The notes beneath the pieces are model-generated. The model worked only from the letters and a program-made list of their open reading frames with translations, was not told where the DNA came from and did no database searches. The translations under genes and the position numbers were made by a program. Shown piece after piece: positions 7,054 to 19,136 of a stretch of DNA of 64,000 nt. Positions within the stretch are counted from its first letter, which is position 1. Each line of letters opens with the position of its first letter. This stretch comes from an uncultured Bdellovibrionales bacterium (GTDB lineage Bacteria; Patescibacteriota; Minisyncoccia; Moranbacterales; UBA1568), in NCBI GenBank assembly GCA_964530135.1, contig CAZGXN010000006.1, forward strand, positions 5,396 through 69,395, given 5' to 3'.

Positions 7054-8700
<1,647 letters not shown>

Positions 8701-8822
8701 AAGCCTTTTGGAGGGATACTCCTTGATAGAAAGTCCACAGGAAGTATCCCTCTACTTTTCAATTTGGAGCACTTCTAAAGTGGCAAAATTACTGCCCCTA
8801 TAGGGGCTAATATTTTGCCATT

Positions 8823-9914
8823 TTAGACCGCCTCACTCGTTACCTCGGAAGAGCCGGGGAGAAAACAGAGTTTGGCATTCTTTTTTCCTTTCTCACAGCC
8901 CACCTCTTTGTTCTCAATCATGTCCTTCAATATTTTCTGGACAAACTTTCCTCCGACTTCTTCGGCTATCTTTACTTGATCCACGATCACCATCATCGGA
9001 AGCCTCTCCTCACTTTCGGTCAGGAGATGGAGAATAGTCTCTTTGATCTGACTTGCCTTCTCTGCTTCTCCTGAGTGGTTGCCAGAGTACATGAACGAAA
9101 CTTTTCCTTCCTCTTTTACAACCACAATCTCGAAAGCTGGCGTCTCCTCATCTACTCGGAGCTTCGGCTGTTCGAATACTAGAACGCCTTTCATATCCCT
9201 ATCCTTTCTAACGGAGATATGCGAATCAACTGCCGCTGAGATATCAGATGATCCACGCATTTTATTTTGTGCAGACGACCTGATGAGTCCCTCTTTTCTT
9301 TCGTGATGCGTCAGTATCACGGTTCTGCCATTTTGGTTAAACTTTTTGATTGCTTTGAATACAGTGGACATTTGGGTTGCGTCATTCTCATTCCCACTAT
9401 GGATCCTCACAAGTGAATCGAAAAATATCGTATCGATGTTATTCCTTTCGCACATGCTCAGAATTCTTTTGATCCAAGCTTCTTTGTCGACTGCAACCCC
9501 CTCTTGGGAAAGGAAGTAGATAGGGGAGTCGCTTGTAGCTCCTAGGAGACTGGCTCGTTCTTGGAGTAAGCGTAGGTGATTTTCCTCATCCACAATGAGA
9601 ACAGATGACTTAGGGCATTCGAACTGGCCAAGGAACTTTTCTCCTTTTGTCATGGAGATCCCCATGAGCAGGAGGAGCCAAGTCTTATAGTTGCCCGGAG
9701 GACCAGAGAGAATGGTGATGCCTTGATGAGGGACGAGTTTATCAATTGCCCATCTACTCTCTGGGAACTTCATAGCGAGCAGCTGTCCCATGGATATAAG
9801 TTCGGGGAATTCAACTTGCTTCTTTGGTTTACTGACGACGGTCGGTAGAGGATCGCTTTTCCTTTTTGCAACCTCTTCACCGAGTGCCAAAACCCTTTCT
9901 TGAATATGCTTCAT
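8823..9914 (-). CDS. RecA-like P-loop ATPase of the AAA_25 / DnaB-C-terminal-like type, probable mobile-element replication protein
   Basis: WAIDKLVPHQGITILSGPPGNYKTWLLLLMG (Walker A variant), VLIVDEEN (Walker B), FFDSLVRIHSGNEND. Confidence 0.55.
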   Translation of the reverse strand: MKHIQERVLALGEEVAKRKSDPLPTVVSKPKKQVEFPELISMGQLLAMKFPESRWAIDKLVPHQGITILSGPPGNYKTWLLLLMGISMTKGEKFLGQFECPKSSVLIVDEENHLRLLQERASLLGATSDSPIYFLSQEGVAVDKEAWIKRILSMCERNNIDTIFFDSLVRIHSGNENDATQMSTVFKAIKKFNQNGRTVILTHHERKEGLIRSSAQNKMRGSSDISAAVDSHISVRKDRDMKGVLVFEQPKLRVDEETPAFEIVVVKEEGKVSFMYSGNHSGEAEKASQIKETILHLLTESEERLPMMVIVDQVKIAEEVGGKFVQKILKDMIENKEVGCEKGKKNAKLCFLPGSSEVTSEAV

Positions 9915-9919
9915 AGCCT

Positions 9920-10111
9920 TTACTTGTCATGCTGGACCAACAGCTCAAAGAGTCGCTGCAAATCTGAGGCAATTTGAGCTACCTCAGTTTTGCTCAACTT
10001 GATAGAGCGCTCCTGCTCTACTAAGTTCCGCAGTTCATCAATGAGCTGTTGGCTTGGCATGTGATTAAAATTAAAAGCACCCCTGCATGTTAGAGGGGCG
10101 CTATCATTCAA
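9920..10111 (-). CDS. small hypothetical protein just upstream of the ATPase gene (same strand)
   Basis: ORF only; helical, charged. Confidence 0.25.
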   Translation of the reverse strand: MNDSAPLTCRGAFNFNHMPSQQLIDELRNLVEQERSIKLSKTEVAQIASDLQRLFELLVQHDK

Positions 10112-10134
10112 TATTCAATTGAATTTAGATGAAT

Positions 10135-11037
10135 CTACGGATTGAATACCCAGCCAGATTCCCTATGATTCAAAATATGGTTTTTGCCACTTTTCTTTTT
10201 AAGAACCTGTCTCAAGGCACTCACATACTTTGATACGGTTGGTTTCTGAATACTTGCCCAATCATCTCCAGTGCTTACCGCATCTTTTACATCATCTTCG
10301 TTCCAGATGCTTTTTTCGCCTTTGATAAACATGCGCGCAAGCATATTTAACTGTTGTCTCATTTCGATTATCTCTCCTTGATATCTTACGGATCCATCAT
10401 TGTAAAAGGCAAAGTCGCCAGAGCTATACTCTTTATGGAGATCTTCCCTAACTAAAACCAGGCTTCTTGTCGTTGTAGGTTTTGGTTTATATTCAAGTAC
10501 GGTTTTGATTACAATACTCCAAGGACTTAGAAGTAGTATAGAGAAAGATTTAACGGCGATAATGCCATCTTTTTTGAGCCACGTTAGAGCGTCAATGAAA
10601 TCAATATGTCCATAATCTTCTTGCTGAAAAGATACGACGCTTGCAATTTCATTCCATACAAATGGAGGATAATTCTTATCTTTCGGCATGAGCGTAGTTG
10701 TATACACCAAAGGGATTCGGTTTATTTCGAATCTTTCCGAAAGGCTGTTTAAAGATTTTGTGAGACTGTTCCTGCCCTTATTGAGAGAGTAGGGCGTTGA
10801 GTTATAAAAGTCTATCAGGGGCTTGAGCAACTCTATTTTTTCAGGGTTCTCAGACAGTATCTCATTTACAATCGGAAGCATTTCATCAAGATCTGGGGAC
10901 CAGTTTGAGTCAGCCTCAATCTTTCGGTAGGACGCATTGCCTTTGCTGTCATGGGATTCAATTTCCGTTCCAAGCTTGGCAAAGAATTCGACTATAAGCT
11001 TTTTCTGACTTTCGTTAAACATAGTGGCACAAGTCAC
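10135..11037 (-). CDS. protein with C-terminal OmpR/PhoB-type winged-helix DNA-binding domain, N-terminal region unknown (possible regulator or replication initiator of the island)
   Basis: C-terminus TVSKYVSALRQVLKKK...HILNHRESGWVFNP matches the Trans_reg_C wing pattern (hIsrLRkkl...I.TvRG.GY.h). Confidence 0.45.
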   Translation of the reverse strand: MTCATMFNESQKKLIVEFFAKLGTEIESHDSKGNASYRKIEADSNWSPDLDEMLPIVNEILSENPEKIELLKPLIDFYNSTPYSLNKGRNSLTKSLNSLSERFEINRIPLVYTTTLMPKDKNYPPFVWNEIASVVSFQQEDYGHIDFIDALTWLKKDGIIAVKSFSILLLSPWSIVIKTVLEYKPKPTTTRSLVLVREDLHKEYSSGDFAFYNDGSVRYQGEIIEMRQQLNMLARMFIKGEKSIWNEDDVKDAVSTGDDWASIQKPTVSKYVSALRQVLKKKSGKNHILNHRESGWVFNP

Positions 11038-11117
11038 GGGTTAAAGAAGGTAAAGTTCCCTCTAATTAAGCATTTTTTTACCCAAGAATCAAGGAGTGTT
11101 GAACTTTCGGCTTTCAA

Positions 11118-11873
11118 GTGCTACCTTGGAAAAGGACTCATACTCAATCGGCTCTGAATACTAAAATATTCAGTTTTAGCCCTATCACGCCCTTCAGCGG
11201 GCGGCTCGATGCACATGATAGGGCATTTCGGTGCTTTTTGAGTGTGAGTCCCGTCGGGTCGTCCACTCAAGTTAGACTTCTCGGCGACTTTATCACTAAG
11301 GTCGCTTTTTATATGAAGAGAATACTAGATGTTGTATTAACAACTCTTTCAGTAGCGTTTTTATTCGCAGGACTCTTTCTGGGGTGGCTCTATGCAGATC
11401 AAAGAATGAGTGTTTCTAGTGGAGAGAACCATTTGGAATTTATTTTGTCAGCAGTTTTTGTTGGTCTTTCAATGGGATATATCTTTTGGAAAACTTGGCA
11501 GAAAGAAAAGCTAAACACTATCGTTGGAAAAGAAAAGTTAAAGGGAATAGGGGGATGGCTAGTGTTGCCGTTACTCGGATTACTTTTTTCAATCATCAAT
11601 GTCTTGAATGAGGCCAGTAATTCAGCGGGTTATTCCATAGCAATTTTATATCTGGTCGTACTCGTTGCGTTTTTATGGAAGTTCAAAATAGCAGTTCCTC
11701 TTACCATTGTGTTTCTCTTCGTTAACTTCCTGATCTCTCTTTCTGTTGGAAGTAGCCTAGAGGTGATGAGAGACGGAGCTTTGTTGGCAATCTGGGGACT
11801 GTACTTCATAAAGTCAGTAAGAGTAAAACAGACTTTCATAAGAACTCTATCTAATGCCGAAGAAAAGGCATGA
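11118..11873 (+). CDS. hypothetical multi-pass membrane protein (true start probably internal, near 11315)
   Basis: Hydrophobic helices; AT-rich; no motif. Confidence 0.3.
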   Translation: MLPWKRTHTQSALNTKIFSFSPITPFSGRLDAHDRAFRCFLSVSPVGSSTQVRLLGDFITKVAFYMKRILDVVLTTLSVAFLFAGLFLGWLYADQRMSVSSGENHLEFILSAVFVGLSMGYIFWKTWQKEKLNTIVGKEKLKGIGGWLVLPLLGLLFSIINVLNEASNSAGYSIAILYLVVLVAFLWKFKIAVPLTIVFLFVNFLISLSVGSSLEVMRDGALLAIWGLYFIKSVRVKQTFIRTLSNAEEKA

Positions 11874-12390
11874 AGCTTTATTTTGGGTACCCACTGCATG
11901 GGTGGGTCATATTAGTGGTTTGGATTGGTATAGTAATTTATGGCATGCACGCTAAAATCAATGATCCATCGCCGAGTTGCTTCCTTGATCCAAGGTCGAG
12001 TTTCGGGGATGAATGTGATGAGTAGCTTATGCTTTCGATAGATGAGTGTAGGGAGTTAATATCAGGCAGTGAAAAGTTCACCGACAAGCAGGTAGAAGAG
12101 ATTAGGGAAGATCTTTACGGTTTGGCTGAGCTAGCACTCGAGAGCTATTTTAAGAAGAAAGGGAAGGCTAGTAGGCTTGAGGAAGCCTAACTTTTCCCTA
12201 TTAATAGGGGATGTACAGAAGGAAGAATTTGTGGCATACTTGGAGCAAATAGAAATAAATACCACCCTAAAAATACTCGAAGTACGGAAAGAGCCATAGA
12301 AGGATTATACTAACCCAACTATTCCACGCTCCGCACCTTTGAAAAGCGGGGTGTTTTATTTTATAAGTATGAAAATTGAAAATCTAGGCT

Positions 12391-13311
12391 ATGTATAAAA
12401 TACTTTCTATCGATGGTGGAGGAATCAAAGGTGTGTTTCCCGCCTCTTTTCTTGCCTCAGTTGAAGAGACTCTAGGAGAGGATATTGCAGAGTACTTTGA
12501 TTTAATTGTAGGAACTTCGACAGGAGGCATCATTGCTATTGCGCTTGGATTAGGTATCAGCCCTAGAGATATTCTTAGTTTCTACGAAAAACATGGCCCG
12601 CAGATATTCAAGGGAAATAGTATTTACCGAATGCTCCGGCATTTTGGATACCCGAAATACGAAAGAGAACCTTTGGAGAAGGCTCTTAGGGAGATCTTTG
12701 GAGACAGGAAATTAGGTGATAGCAGTAAGAGGCTAGTTATTCCAAGTTTTAATCTTAGTACTGGAGAGGTGTATGTTTATAAGACTGCACACCATGAGAG
12801 GCTCCAGAGGGACTATAAGGAATTTGCGGTTGATGTTGCCTTAGCGACATCTGCCGCTCCCACATATTTTCCTACGTTTACAACATCTGCAGAAATTCCT
12901 CTCGTAGATGGGGGAATATGGGCGAATAATCCCATGGGGATGAGTGCTGTGGAGGGAATAGGGATACTTTCTTGGCCAAGGGAGGAGATAAAAATACTGA
13001 GCATCGGTTGCACCGCTGAGACTTTAAATGTGAGCAATGATGGGGGAAAGATTCCGTGGGCATTAAAGCTCGCTGATGTTTTTATGGCCTCACAATCTTC
13101 TGCTTCCTTGGGAACCGCACAGCTCTTAGTAGGACACGAAAATGTAAAGAGAATTAATCCCGTAGTCCCAAATCGTCGATTCGGTATTGATGTAGTCAAG
13201 GGAATCAGTGCTCTTAAAGGGCTAGGATCTTCAGAGGCAAGAAAAGAGTATCCGAACATTCAAATATTTTTTCAAGAAAAGGCAGAATCATTTGAGCCGA
13301 TTTACCGATAA
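12391..13311 (+). CDS. patatin-like phospholipase (CapV-like candidate effector)
   Basis: Oxyanion hole SIDGGGIKG, nucleophile elbow GTSTGG, catalytic Asp in VDGG (patatin Ser-Asp dyad). Confidence 0.85.
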   Translation: MYKILSIDGGGIKGVFPASFLASVEETLGEDIAEYFDLIVGTSTGGIIAIALGLGISPRDILSFYEKHGPQIFKGNSIYRMLRHFGYPKYEREPLEKALREIFGDRKLGDSSKRLVIPSFNLSTGEVYVYKTAHHERLQRDYKEFAVDVALATSAAPTYFPTFTTSAEIPLVDGGIWANNPMGMSAVEGIGILSWPREEIKILSIGCTAETLNVSNDGGKIPWALKLADVFMASQSSASLGTAQLLVGHENVKRINPVVPNRRFGIDVVKGISALKGLGSSEARKEYPNIQIFFQEKAESFEPIYR

Positions 13312-14716
13312 AATTATGAAGCTTGAAAAAGTATTTAATTATTTTCTGGAGAACGTAGTAAATTTGAATAAGAGTAGATTTGATGTGGCTGAGGCTGGAA
13401 TAGATACTATTTCAAGTATTCTAGAGAACGATGATGTTTTTGGAGAACTATTTGTTGGTGCAGAACCACAAGGATCTTTTAGGCAGGAAACAATTATTAA
13501 ACCTGTGGATGCAGGAAAGGATTTTGATGTCGATTTATTGTTTGAAGTGGTGCCAGTAGACGGATGGGAACCAAAAGATTATCTTTTAAATTTATCTTCC
13601 CAGTTGAAGAAAATACCAAGGTACGAAAAACTTGTTGATACGAGAGGAAAAACACGTTGTGTAACCATAGACTATGAAAGTGATTTTCACATCGACATAG
13701 TGCCTACGGTTCAAACCGATTCTGGTAACGTTATTTTCAATAGAGAGACCAATGAAGTAGAGCCAACCGACGGAGATGGATATGCTCAATGGTTTACGAG
13801 TAAGAATGAAGTTACGGGAAAGAAACTTTTGGTGAAAGTTGTTCGACTGATTAAGTATATTCGGGATGCAGATAAAAAGTTTGATGCAAAATCTATTCTA
13901 CTGACGACGTTGCTCGGTAACCAAGTTTTTTATGATGATGAAAGAGCTAAGTTCTACCCAGATTTGCCGACAGCGTTTGTGGTTATTCTTTCTCGCCTAG
14001 ATGCTTTTCTGCAGGCAAACCCTACGATGCCAGAGATTGGAAACCCTGTTTTACCTACAGAGCCTTCTTTTAATCGGAAATGGGATCAAGAGAAATATGA
14101 GAAATTTCGCAGTAGTATCCACGAATATTCTTTAAATGCTATAGATGCTATTCAAGAGCCTAGCGAAGAAAAATCTTTGCAAAAGTGGCAGAAGATTTTT
14201 GGAGAAAAATTTAGAATCCCTAATACCCAAAGTACTTTAGCAGTGAGGGAATCTTTTCCTCTAGGATTTGTAATCGGAGACTATTCCCATAGGATCAAAC
14301 TTTCTGATATTGGAATTAGTAGCTCTGTGTCGCGTCACATCCCTATTAGAATAAGTGCATCGTTATATTTTGGACTGTCTGATACAAAAGAAATGAATCG
14401 TAGATTTCAGCGAACTCTTGTGAGCGGTACCGAAGTTCCTCCTATGCACTGGATAAAGTATGAGATAAAAACTCCAGTTGAGCACGGACAGGAGGTGTAT
14501 TGGCAGGTTGTTAACACCGGAGCTCATGCGCGCGAAAAGGGCCAATTAAGAGGAGGTATTGAATATGGTGGACTGGTAAAGTGGGAAAGAAGTCTTTATA
14601 CAGGAGTGCATTGGGTGGAGTGCTACTTGGTAGATTCAGTTAATAGGGAATGCGTAGGGAAAAGTGATCCATTTTTTGTTGTATTTAATAATTCCAGCTT
14701 TTCATTCCGATTATAG
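13292..14716 (+). CDS. cGAS/DncV-like nucleotidyltransferase (CD-NTase-like, Pol-beta superfamily); overlaps patatin gene by 20 nt
   Basis: QGSFRQETIIKP...DFDVDLLF (GS then [DE]h[DE]h) and third acidic residue in DFHIDIVP about 55 aa downstream; about 220-aa C-terminal extension of unknown fold. Confidence 0.55.
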   Translation: MSRFTDKIMKLEKVFNYFLENVVNLNKSRFDVAEAGIDTISSILENDDVFGELFVGAEPQGSFRQETIIKPVDAGKDFDVDLLFEVVPVDGWEPKDYLLNLSSQLKKIPRYEKLVDTRGKTRCVTIDYESDFHIDIVPTVQTDSGNVIFNRETNEVEPTDGDGYAQWFTSKNEVTGKKLLVKVVRLIKYIRDADKKFDAKSILLTTLLGNQVFYDDERAKFYPDLPTAFVVILSRLDAFLQANPTMPEIGNPVLPTEPSFNRKWDQEKYEKFRSSIHEYSLNAIDAIQEPSEEKSLQKWQKIFGEKFRIPNTQSTLAVRESFPLGFVIGDYSHRIKLSDIGISSSVSRHIPIRISASLYFGLSDTKEMNRRFQRTLVSGTEVPPMHWIKYEIKTPVEHGQEVYWQVVNTGAHAREKGQLRGGIEYGGLVKWERSLYTGVHWVECYLVDSVNRECVGKSDPFFVVFNNSSFSFRL

Positions 14717-14735
14717 TGTCTATTAAATACTGCTT

Positions 14736-15662
14736 ATGAAACTCGTAATTGAGTGTTTAGTGGAGTCTAATATTAGGCTTGGTAGTGAATTAAGCATTGA
14801 AAAAGAAGGAAAACTTTTTACATTCTTGGTAAACTCGGAAGGTGCTCTTGAAAAAATTAAAGTGCTTACGCCCATCTCTTATCCGGAGAGGTTTTATTCA
14901 GAAGTTAAAACAAACAGTCCATCTCCCTCTCAGCATGAAATAATTCTTCGAAAGGACGATGATTTGATAGATTCTGTAATTGAAGAACTACAGTCATTGG
15001 AATCTAGTCTCGCTTTTACATATCAAGTCCGAAAATTCCATTGGAATACCCTACAAATAGACCTAGTATGCGAAACTACGGAAGAAAGAAATAGAAACAG
15101 CGTAGTGAGTCTTAAGATGGAGAGCAGGTATCCAGAGTATCCAGTGATAGTAAGTGATGAAGATATGCGCTCTCTAGTCCTTGGGCTTGAGAAGTATAAA
15201 AGCCTCAGCATCTATAAGTCTTTTTACAGAGAGGGGCACAATGATTTTACGTCGTTCAGATACATAAACGCTTTCTACAACTATTACTTTATATTGGAGG
15301 GGATGTTTAGTGGTGGTGAAACACGCAACACAAAAGTAGAGCAAGAGTTTTATAAATCAGAAATACTAACAAGGCATGTGCAGGAGCTTATACAGATTTT
15401 GGAAAAGAAGCATCCAAGACATCTGAAGAACATTAAGAAAATGTTGGATAAGAGAAACCAAGAATTAAGTGTGAAGGGGATTATATCTCTCATCGTAAAA
15501 GTTCGTGGGGATTTGCATCATTTTTTCAATAATAAAAATAAAATTGAGCCAACTCCGTTTAATCAGAAAGCCTTTGAGTCAATTGCTTTAGTAATGCTTT
15601 TTCTATCGTGTAGTTCTATTCTAGGAAGAGTAGTTGAGATAAATCAAGAAAAAAATATATAG
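14736..15662 (+). CDS. hypothetical protein, third gene of the patatin-NTase operon, no recognisable motif
   Basis: 20-nt gap from the NTase gene; no Walker motifs, no E1/E2 Cys motifs, no HORMA-like features seen. Confidence 0.45.
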   Translation: MKLVIECLVESNIRLGSELSIEKEGKLFTFLVNSEGALEKIKVLTPISYPERFYSEVKTNSPSPSQHEIILRKDDDLIDSVIEELQSLESSLAFTYQVRKFHWNTLQIDLVCETTEERNRNSVVSLKMESRYPEYPVIVSDEDMRSLVLGLEKYKSLSIYKSFYREGHNDFTSFRYINAFYNYYFILEGMFSGGETRNTKVEQEFYKSEILTRHVQELIQILEKKHPRHLKNIKKMLDKRNQELSVKGIISLIVKVRGDLHHFFNNKNKIEPTPFNQKAFESIALVMLFLSCSSILGRVVEINQEKNI

Positions 15663-15668
15663 CTTTGT

Positions 15669-16502
15669 ATGGATAAAGATCAAATAGAAAAAGTTCTCCT
15701 AGAAAAGTCTAGGATAGGCGGCCTCTTAACTGAGCTAGAAGTGGCCGGAATCTTTAAAAAGCATGGCTTTAGGTTAGAGCTCAATAAGTACTATAACGAC
15801 ATCGATGAAGGAAAAGGCAGAGAGATTGATTTGGTCGCCACATTCTCTAGGAAAACAGATACAGATGAAGAAGATTATCTTGAGATGGTTTTTAAATTTA
15901 TTGTTGAGATAAAGAGATCTGAAAAGCCCTGGGTCTTCACAACATTTCCGGCAGATGATTTTCATGAAAAAGAGAGTCCATTTTTTAGATTTGAAAGTGA
16001 AAACTTTGATAAGTTAACTCTGGCAGAAGCTTTTTTTGGTACCCTTAAAGAGATTGAAGATGAAAGGTTGGGAAGAAACTTTGCTGTAATAGATCCTAAA
16101 GAGCAAAAGAAAGAAAATGATACCCCTATCTTCTCTGCATTATTCTCTGTGGCCAAGGCCTTTTATGCAGAGCATTTCTTAGACAGTTATATAAAGCAAG
16201 GGAAGGATAAATTGTCTGAAAAGATATTCGAGTACCATGAACTGTTAGTTGTTGTCGACGCACCAATTTACGAAGTGTTTATCGAAGATGGTAAGGAAAA
16301 GATCCAAAGAGTTAGTGAGCTTCTTGTCGCTTTCAACTACACATCACCTAAATATGATGAGACCAGTGTATATATCATACGGGTTATAGCAAAAGAGAGT
16401 TTGGACGACTTCCTAGGTATGAGGATGGAAAGTTTCAGAAAGATATCCGAAGAGATTCTTGAGAAAGAGGGTGGAGGCAAGCCTTTTGATGAAGAGGCTT
16501 AG
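15669..16502 (+). CDS. hypothetical protein, fourth gene of the operon; possible PD-(D/E)xK nuclease-like core
   Basis: 7-nt gap from previous gene; GREIDLVATF ... about 25 aa ... IVEIKRSEKPWVF fits a D...ExK pattern (weak, by eye). Confidence 0.4.
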   Translation: MDKDQIEKVLLEKSRIGGLLTELEVAGIFKKHGFRLELNKYYNDIDEGKGREIDLVATFSRKTDTDEEDYLEMVFKFIVEIKRSEKPWVFTTFPADDFHEKESPFFRFESENFDKLTLAEAFFGTLKEIEDERLGRNFAVIDPKEQKKENDTPIFSALFSVAKAFYAEHFLDSYIKQGKDKLSEKIFEYHELLVVVDAPIYEVFIEDGKEKIQRVSELLVAFNYTSPKYDETSVYIIRVIAKESLDDFLGMRMESFRKISEEILEKEGGGKPFDEEA

Positions 16503-16609
16503 GTTGATATGTATGTTTCCTCTAGTAATTCTCTCGTCTGCTTGAAGCACATCTCGAAGTTTGGATACGAGGGAAGGGGATCAGAATTTCCGAAAACATC
16601 CCATCTTGT

Positions 16610-16678
16610 GAGCAGCTAAAAACAGGGCTTAAGTGAGCCTTGTTTTTTGTTATCCAAAGTGAGGGTTAGAACCAAGAG
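16610..16678 (+). repeat. att-like motif copy 2: gagcagctaaaaacagggcttaagtgagccttgttttttgttatccaaagtgagggttagaaccaagag
   Basis: About 85% identical over ~70 nt to copy at 24817-24888; contains tRNA 3'-end GAGCA + hairpin + TTTTTTGTTA. Confidence 0.55.
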
Positions 16679-16782: not shown

Positions 16783-17217
16783 ATGGCCACAAGAGGCTGC
16801 GGTATCGTTTTCTACAACCCACGGAAAGACGCGGTTCTGGTCTTTCGTCGGGACAACAAGGACTGGATTCCCTTCCCGAACATGCTCGACCTCCTCGGTG
16901 GGCATGTGGAAGAAGGAGAAACCCCGGAAGAGGCCGCCGTTCGTGAAATGGCCGAAGAACTCATCGACCTGCGAACGGGACAGGAATATGTGTTGGAGCG
17001 GCACCAGCTGTTCCTTCGCTACACCGATGCACGGGATTGCGAGCAAAGCATTTTCGTGTGCGACGTGAACTTCGACCTCACGGACCTGCGTCTTCTCGAA
17101 GGCAAGGAACTGGTCTGGGTGTCACGGCAGGAAATCGAAGATGGTCTCAAGATGGCCTTCGAGTTCGGGAACGTGCTGAAGCAGTTCTTTGCAAATCGGT
17201 CCGCTGAAGCCATCTGA
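16783..17217 (+). CDS. NUDIX hydrolase
   Basis: Nudix box GGHVEEGETPEEAAVREMAEEL; markedly GC-rich relative to neighbours. Confidence 0.75.
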   Translation: MATRGCGIVFYNPRKDAVLVFRRDNKDWIPFPNMLDLLGGHVEEGETPEEAAVREMAEELIDLRTGQEYVLERHQLFLRYTDARDCEQSIFVCDVNFDLTDLRLLEGKELVWVSRQEIEDGLKMAFEFGNVLKQFFANRSAEAI

Positions 17218-18593: not shown

Positions 18594-19136
18594 GTGCAAA
18601 CTATGTCAGACATTCAAGAATGGGAAGAGCTTTCCCGTGAAACAATTTTTGAGAAATACCGACGTGGTATCGAGAAAGTAGTTTTCCGATTGCCAGACGG
18701 CTCTGAGCGCGATTTTTATCTCAAGAAAGAGGATAGCTCGATTTGTGTTCTGGCTTTGACGGAGACGAAGGAGGTTATCCTTGCGAAACAGTTCCGTCCA
18801 GGACCAAAGAAGGTGTTGCTAGAACTTCCAGGAGGTGGAATGGAAAAAGGAGAAACTCCAGAAGAGGCCATAGCGAGAGAGCTTTTAGAAGAGACGGGTT
18901 ATGCGGGAAATATCAAGCGGGTTACTCGGGCGTATGAGTGTGGTTATTCGCCGATGCATCGCTACTGCTTTGTAGCTACAGATTGTAAGAATGTCGCCGA
19001 GCCCAAGCTTGATGATGGAGAGTTTATTGAAGTTGTACTACTCCCATTAGATGAGTTTCGAAGCCTTCTACAAAGCGGAGAGCTTACCGATGTAGAGGTC
19101 GGCTATCTGGGTCTTGATTATCTTGGATTACTTTGA
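18594..19136 (+). CDS. NUDIX hydrolase (ADP-ribose pyrophosphatase-like)
   Basis: Nudix box LPGGGMEKGETPEEAIARELLEETGY. Confidence 0.75.
   Translation: MQTMSDIQEWEELSRETIFEKYRRGIEKVVFRLPDGSERDFYLKKEDSSICVLALTETKEVILAKQFRPGPKKVLLELPGGGMEKGETPEEAIARELLEETGYAGNIKRVTRAYECGYSPMHRYCFVATDCKNVAEPKLDDGEFIEVVLLPLDEFRSLLQSGELTDVEVGYLGLDYLGLL

Follow-up and report, generated by a model that had tools for sequence, protein, structure and literature searches.

A probable stand-alone PD-(D/E)xK-type endonuclease of a large, uncharacterised mobile family, encoded beside a Type I CBASS operon

The DNA analyzed here (the window) is a stretch of 64,000 nucleotides (nt) from contig CAZGXN010000006.1 of an uncultured bacterium of the Patescibacteriota, and the subject of this report is the last of four closely spaced genes on its forward strand (gene 4), the first two of which encode a cyclic-oligonucleotide-based antiphage signaling system (CBASS). 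We favor, with moderate confidence, the hypothesis that gene 4 encodes a stand-alone PD-(D/E)xK-type endonuclease that belongs to a large, uncharacterised and mobile family and is independent of the neighboring CBASS. Under this hypothesis, the enzyme would probably be metal-dependent, with an active site composed of E22 (on a helix), D54 (on the second core strand) and E80-x-K82 (on the third), together with the family-specific residues D44, R51 and E52, while the C-terminal 170 residues would select the substrate or control the activity. The family would spread horizontally through many bacterial phyla as a solo gene that often forms an AT-rich islet by itself; in the window, the gene would be cargo of a serine-recombinase integrative island at a tRNA-Asn, co-transcribed with the Type I CBASS yet acting independently of the CBASS signal.

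A first-pass annotation, made from the letters of the sequence, had pointed out two peptides about 25 residues apart as an Asp...Glu-x-Lys arrangement. Both peptides are present in the 277-residue product, GREIDLVATF at residues 50-59 and IVEIKRSEKPWVF at residues 78-90, with 26 residues from D54 to E80 of E80-x-K82. It is important to note that the motif on its own is near chance level: when this Glu/Lys/Asp-rich protein is shuffled, 99.5% of the resulting sequences have a pattern of the loose kind, D-x(10-30)-[DE]-x-K, and 4.5% a stricter D...[DE]-x-K pattern with hydrophobic context. The motif is meaningful because its residues are conserved across homologues, not by itself. A word-indexed search with gene 4 found only eight relatives; an exhaustive profile search raised the number to 2,417 cluster representatives (E<=1e-3), of which 671 reach E<=1e-10 (clusters at 50% identity, that is, a family of at least 2,400 clusters), nearly all of them 255-295 amino acids (aa) long and aligned over their full length. 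Among 113 aligned homologues, mostly 20-35% identical to gene 4, D44 and K82 are invariant (113/113 for K82), and G18, E22 (111), R51 (111), E52 (108), D54 (111), E80 (104) and W88 (111) are conserved in at least 90% of the sequences. The D/E/K residues proposed as catalytic in the first-pass annotation are, that is, conserved in homologues. Conservation is slightly lower at D46, E47, K49 and P87, some members have S or Q at the position of E80, and the C-terminal half has conserved residues of its own (R133, G135, R136, K163, A164, P192, G198, E202, Y224, S226 and Y229).

An AlphaFold model built from a 59-sequence alignment is confident, with a mean predicted local distance difference test score (pLDDT) of 93.5 and a predicted template modeling score of 0.92, and replaced a mediocre first model from 8 sequences (pLDDT 76.5). 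The elements follow in the order helices 3-17 and 19-31 (the latter bearing E22), strands 35-44, 49-63, 71-83 and 88-94, and then more alpha/beta elements; D44 lies at the end of strand 35-44, R51, E52 and D54 on strand 49-63, and E80 and K82 on strand 71-83. The model thus places a conserved acidic residue on the second core strand and the (D/E)-x-K on the third, on paired strands that follow the E22 helix. Because of the strand limits and the turn at 64-70, residue 63 should pair with 71 and 54 with 80, which would set D54 opposite E80 in the hairpin, the classical PD-(D/E)xK arrangement. The N-terminal 95 residues are accordingly labeled as the predicted nuclease core in Table 1, and the C-terminal region is presumed to be the substrate-recognition or regulatory part.

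Foldseek searches with this model returned no significant match in the PDB or in BFVD, and the C-terminal region has no significant structural match. The weak matches by structure and by sequence, all of them sub-threshold, are heavily skewed to the PD-(D/E)xK superfamily. The top-ranked PDB match is a weak one to a model of YdjA-YdiS, which we take to be the BsuMI restriction subunits, and the top 50 also include six proteins of R2 retrotransposons (probability 0.77 at most), presumed to carry a C-terminal restriction-like endonuclease domain, as well as HinP1I, DrdV, SSO0001 (presumably Cas4) and the phage-related exonuclease 3k93, in a table that holds no information on which part of each target aligned. 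In the viral database BFVD, the weak named matches are mostly of PD-(D/E)xK type (UL24, restriction enzymes, Cas4, alk-exo, proteins named "PD-(D/E)XK nuclease superfamily", and DUF2726). The only Pfam families matched weakly by more than one family member are UPF0102/YraN (6), Hjc (3) and NERD (2), with single weak matches to Mrr_cat and DUF4143, and the family consensus reaches XisH at 1.5e-3 (19.1 bits vs. a cut-off of 25) and UPF0102 at 3.1e-3 (18.3 bits vs. 23.6); we assume all six to belong to the PD-(D/E)xK clan. An hhalign comparison against a thin two-sequence Hjc profile was negative (probability 0.35%), and sequence searches of the PDB yielded nothing relevant, whether the query was the protein, the family profile or the N-terminal consensus. 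Of the fold proposed in the first-pass annotation, the conserved D/E/K residues and the modeled strands stand, and its outside matches stay sub-threshold. From the modeled topology, the residue conservation and the skew of the weak matches, we regard the nuclease-fold reading as very probably right.

Gene 4 belongs to no named family. It has no match in Pfam, NCBIfam, PHROGs or PADLOC, and the 113 family members have no significant match to a family in these four libraries either (a match to PADLOC PDC-M53A at E 0.012, found in one family member only, was treated as noise). Every available source name of the members is "hypothetical protein", the cluster look-up gave no names, and literature searches found no description of the family. 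The closest likeness is to YraN/UPF0102 and XisH, the best Pfam matches of the family consensus, UPF0102 being also the commonest weak match among members. They share with the family the order G-x-x-x-E in the first helix, G-x-E-I-D-L-[IV]-A in the next strand and [IV]-E-[IV]-K-x-[SR] in the following strand. The gene 4 family differs from them, however, in an inserted YYxDxDExKGRE hairpin with the extra invariant residues D44, R51 and E52 and in a conserved C-terminal region of ~170 aa that is absent from those ~120-140-aa proteins, and its scores against UPF0102, XisH and Hjc lie under the Pfam gathering thresholds.

A further likeness is to solitary restriction-type endonucleases, such as the Type IV enzyme Mrr or the Type II enzyme HinP1I, which are similarly small or stand-alone, patchily distributed, mobile and compositionally atypical, and which join a PD-(D/E)xK core to a specificity region. 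HinP1I, DrdV and the BsuMI-subunit model are among the weak Foldseek matches, and Mrr_cat is among the weak Pfam ones. Gene 4 has no detected modification-reader domain of the recognised kinds (SRA, EVE, YTH or the winged helix of Mrr), and no adjacent cognate methyltransferase, as expected of a Type II restriction-modification system, was found: methyltransferases are missing from the 25 commonest of 100 neighbor families (122 proteins), a census in which single occurrences are possible. An N-terminal helix-turn-helix of excisionase type, with a low-scoring match to phage Gp37 (E 0.044), is present in one homologue (P0039) and is a weak hint that the substrate is DNA.

The family members are found as solo genes in variable surroundings. 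The closest homologues stand alone, by a SocA/Panacea gene, near HicA and DUF5677 genes, downstream of two unrelated genes of unknown kind, or immediately downstream of dnaK; remoter members are flanked by dnaE and a PglZ response regulator gene or follow asmA. A genome scan added 29 more loci, from Patescibacteria, Bacteroidota, Bacillota, Chloroflexota, Nitrospirota, Alpha- and Gammaproteobacteria, Acidobacteriota and Aerophobetes, and neither clustering of neighbors nor a Pfam census of 122 neighboring proteins revealed a recurrent partner. In one locus (L006:1-2239), the gene of a 60%-identical homologue (P0006) has an unrelated 252-aa gene 10 nt upstream of it and, farther upstream, a gene for a protein of 447 aa or more, incomplete at the contig end; neither of these two genes has a Pfam match, and the surroundings could be a different local operon. 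The 252-aa gene was considered as a relative of gene 3 (the gene just upstream of gene 4 in the window) and rejected (BLASTP E 2.3).

Composition sets the family apart from its hosts. The GC content of the gene 4 homologue is below that of the flanks in 37 of 39 loci (31 of 33 without duplicate copies), by a mean of 10 points, and in high-GC hosts the low-GC patch is often only the gene 4 homologue itself. Such islets have 42-44% GC vs. 62-82% in the flanks in Caenispirillum, 33-34% vs. 52-60% in a metagenome-assembled genome (MAG) of the Dehalococcoidales, and 28-29% vs. 50-58% in a Chloroflexia MAG. Similarly, GC at third codon positions (GC3) is 0.18-0.49 in the homologues vs. 0.36-0.93 in neighboring genes (at least 0.63 in most, and 0.63-0.93 beside the one-gene islets of Table 1). 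These AT-rich, often single-gene islets point to horizontal mobility of the family. The few one-gene islets inspected have no recombinase beside them, and a search for flanking repeats found nothing consistent. With the family consensus, two plasmid-borne members were found, on Priestia plasmid pBEH5 (390 aa) and on Enterobacter megaplasmid pMB8072_1 (368 aa). In both, S-x-K replaces E-x-K and the C terminus is extended by ~110 aa that terminate in IPF or LPF; P0182, a metagenomic protein, belongs to this subtype as well. The window protein has no match in the phage and plasmid collections, the consensus has no homologue in the phage collections, and the single family locus in IMG/VR is identical to a Neobacillus chromosome region. 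The family is nearly absent from phage collections.

The alternative put forward in the first-pass annotation is that gene 4 is a second effector or receptor of the CBASS. In a scheme of this kind, its C-terminal region would bind the cyclic nucleotide made by the CD-NTase (cGAS/DncV-like nucleotidyltransferase) and switch on the N-terminal nuclease, so that membrane and DNA would be destroyed together. Such a role would fit the shared strand, the 6-nt spacing, the terminator common to gene 4, CapV and the CD-NTase, the similar GC3 of all four genes (0.31-0.37), and the conserved Arg, Lys and Tyr residues of a C-terminal region with no known function. However, searches of all open reading frames (ORFs) of 31 independent family loci (that is, outside this element) with the window patatin, CD-NTase and gene 3 gave no match, including at loci of homologues that are 55-65% identical and share the same C-terminal region; these queries matched solely the window's own contig copies. 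Conversely, seven loci with CD-NTases 30-63% identical to that of the window, five of them with a patatin, have no gene 4 family member at E<=1 and no gene 3 homologue. Cap4 (a DUF4297 nuclease joined to SAVED) and NucC have a restriction-endonuclease-like catalytic fold and adjoin a CD-NTase; gene 4 differs from both in lacking sequence matches to their models and in the absence of CD-NTase co-occurrence elsewhere in its family. Neither gene 4 nor any of the 113 members matches SAVED, Cap4 or NucC in Pfam, NCBIfam or PADLOC, no solved cyclic-nucleotide-activated nuclease is among the Foldseek matches, and STING appears there at noise level only (probability 0.01-0.06). Nor does the CBASS need a second effector. 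CapV exceeds the cut-off of the NCBIfam CBASS_lipase equivalog (266.7 bits vs. 200), the CD-NTase is fused to AGS-C, a fusion characteristic of Type I CBASS (bioRxiv 10.1101/2023.05.21.541620), and two-gene Type I operons suffice for defense (same reference). The pair, a CD-NTase and one effector without Cap2/Cap3 or HORMA/TRIP13 genes, is therefore already a complete Type I CBASS, and the proposed pairing of a phospholipase and a nuclease in one system does not hold up. We consider a role of gene 4 as CBASS effector or receptor very improbable.

Nor do we find much reason to adopt a second possibility, namely that genes 3 and 4 form a two-gene system of their own (e.g., a nuclease with a sensor or regulator) and only happen to adjoin the CBASS. 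Only 6 nt separate the two genes, and the pair occurs together on every contig with the exact gene 4 (L008-L010), but these contigs carry copies of one element. In a set of 5.8 billion protein clusters, only two further homologues of gene 3 exist, and the one with context (P0208) is part of a phage-integrase island, close to an SLFN/AlbA_2 gene, with neither CBASS nor an adjacent gene of gene 4 family size; no other gene 4 locus has a gene 3 homologue or a conserved neighbor of any kind, and a joint system is thus improbable in our view. Genes 3 and 4 have no match to CBASS accessory models, and literature searches found no described MauJ-like defense gene, MauJ being the weak match of gene 3. 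The two genes are best regarded as independent orphans appended to a Type I CBASS: whereas canonical Type I operons consist of two genes, here two unrelated orphan genes follow in what is likely the same transcription unit. A third hypothesis, unlikely by our assessment, is that gene 4 is a housekeeping nuclease of DNA repair or recombination, comparable to YraN, RecU or Hjc, or else a DNA-binding protein that has a nuclease-like fold but no catalytic activity. The weak sequence matches to YraN/UPF0102 and Hjc, the location of many loci among housekeeping genes such as dnaK and dnaE, and the S or Q at E80 in some members are in line with it. Yet a housekeeping gene would hardly be expected to have so patchy a distribution and no conserved synteny, to differ so strongly from flanking genes in GC and GC3 (one-gene islets included), or to travel on plasmids in other hosts and on an integrative island in the window, and the putative catalytic residues are near-invariant in ~90% of members. 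Hence, we favor a stand-alone endonuclease for gene 4, whose role, presumably accessory, may be solitary restriction-like defense, that of a selfish nuclease, or something else. What the analysis shows is the open reading frame, the conservation of its residues, the predicted topology, the distribution as a solo gene and the foreign composition; the nuclease chemistry, DNA as substrate and the accessory role are inferred.

The setting of gene 4 in the window is consistent with mobility (Table 1). Positions 7054-16650 are probably an integrative island with defense-type cargo, bounded by the tRNA-Asn and followed inward by the genes for the large serine recombinase and the AAA_25 protein. The low-GC cargo extends from ~10,000 to ~16,600 (36-42% GC vs. 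47-51%) and includes the CBASS; the GC3 of the four operon genes compares with 0.56-0.68 in three of four host genes checked, the fourth being a NUDIX gene at 0.40. That gene (18594-19136) is the second of two NUDIX hydrolase genes just downstream of the island, the first (16783-17217; GC3 0.68) being host-like. A search for attachment-type (att) direct repeats around the island found nothing consistent, as might be expected for a serine recombinase. The operon genes are separated by a 20-nt overlap and then by gaps of 19 and 6 nt, and no terminator-like site was found on the forward strand from the CD-NTase gene to the end of gene 4; the hairpin downstream of gene 4 is likely the end of the transcription unit, and gene 4 is thus likely co-transcribed with the three upstream genes.

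Table 1. Features of the window and of other family loci (window coordinates unless a locus name is given)
Feature	Positions	Strand	Remarks
tRNA-Asn	7054-7126	+	Island boundary; abuts the recombinase gene
Large serine recombinase gene	7099-8700	-	Resolvase, Recombinase and Zn_ribbon_recom domains
AAA_25 protein gene	8823-9914	-	Follows the serine recombinase
Gene 1, CapV patatin phospholipase, CBASS effector	12391-13311	+	Pfam Patatin 2.6e-28; NCBIfam CBASS_lipase 2.7e-79; PADLOC phospholipase effector 4.8e-102
Gene 2, CD-NTase (SMODS) fused to AGS-C (AGS_C)	13292-14716	+	PADLOC cyclase 1.1e-134
Gene 3, 308-aa orphan	14736-15662	+	Weak MauJ-like match, 1e-4, below threshold
Gene 4 ORF	15669-16502	+	ATG start, 277 aa plus stop; large unannotated family of solo proteins
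Gene 4 N-terminal module, aa 1-95	15669-15953	+	Predicted PD-(D/E)xK nuclease core
Codon of E22	15732-15734	+	Helix 19-31; candidate helix-borne acidic active-site residue; 111/113 homologues
GREIDLVATF	15816-15845	+	D54 codon 15828-15830; candidate "PD" aspartate on strand 49-63
IVEIKRSEKPWVF	15900-15938	+	E80 15906-15908, K82 15912-15914; candidate (D/E)xK on strand 71-83
Gene 4 C-terminal alpha/beta region, aa 100-270	15966-16478	+	Family-specific; without recognisable relative
Terminator-like hairpin and U-run	16618-16648	+	-20.1 kcal/mol, z -3.6; ~115 nt past the gene 4 stop
One-gene AT-rich islet	L040:5977-6828		Caenispirillum
One-gene AT-rich islet	L020:6001-6783		Dehalococcoidales
One-gene AT-rich islet	L041:6013-6702
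Plasmid-borne member	L052:4926-6098		Priestia pBEH5
Plasmid-borne member	L053:4959-6065		Enterobacter pMB8072_1

Around the CBASS genes themselves, two further observations were made. Just upstream, a 53-aa ORF at 12029-12190 matches the family "Histidine kinase domain observed in conflict contexts" at E 0.058, which is probably noise. In two related patatin and CD-NTase loci, a further gene begins 11 nt past the cyclase gene (L045:2109-3197 and L047:4546-5100); the 362-aa product of the former has no Pfam match, the latter ORF is incomplete at the contig end, and either could be another gene appended or accessory to a Type I CBASS.

In conclusion, the picture of this locus is corrected to that of an ordinary two-gene Type I CBASS followed by unrelated cargo genes, rather than a dual-effector CBASS. 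With the locus ordinary as CBASS, what remains of interest is the unnamed family and its one-gene-islet behavior: a sizeable family outside the curated libraries, with at least 2,400 clusters in many phyla and a near-invariant nuclease-type signature, is a reasonable candidate for a new solo defense or selfish nuclease and, being encoded by one small gene, is easily tested. It is tempting to speculate, although we hold this only tentatively and think it rather less than likely, that the family is an unrecognised class of single-gene mobile nucleases, that is, either an anti-phage defense encoded by one gene, whose C-terminal domain would be a new sensor or confer specificity in a new way, or a homing-type, self-propagating endonuclease. 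If true, such a class could explain the one-gene AT-rich islets found from Patescibacteria to Alphaproteobacteria.
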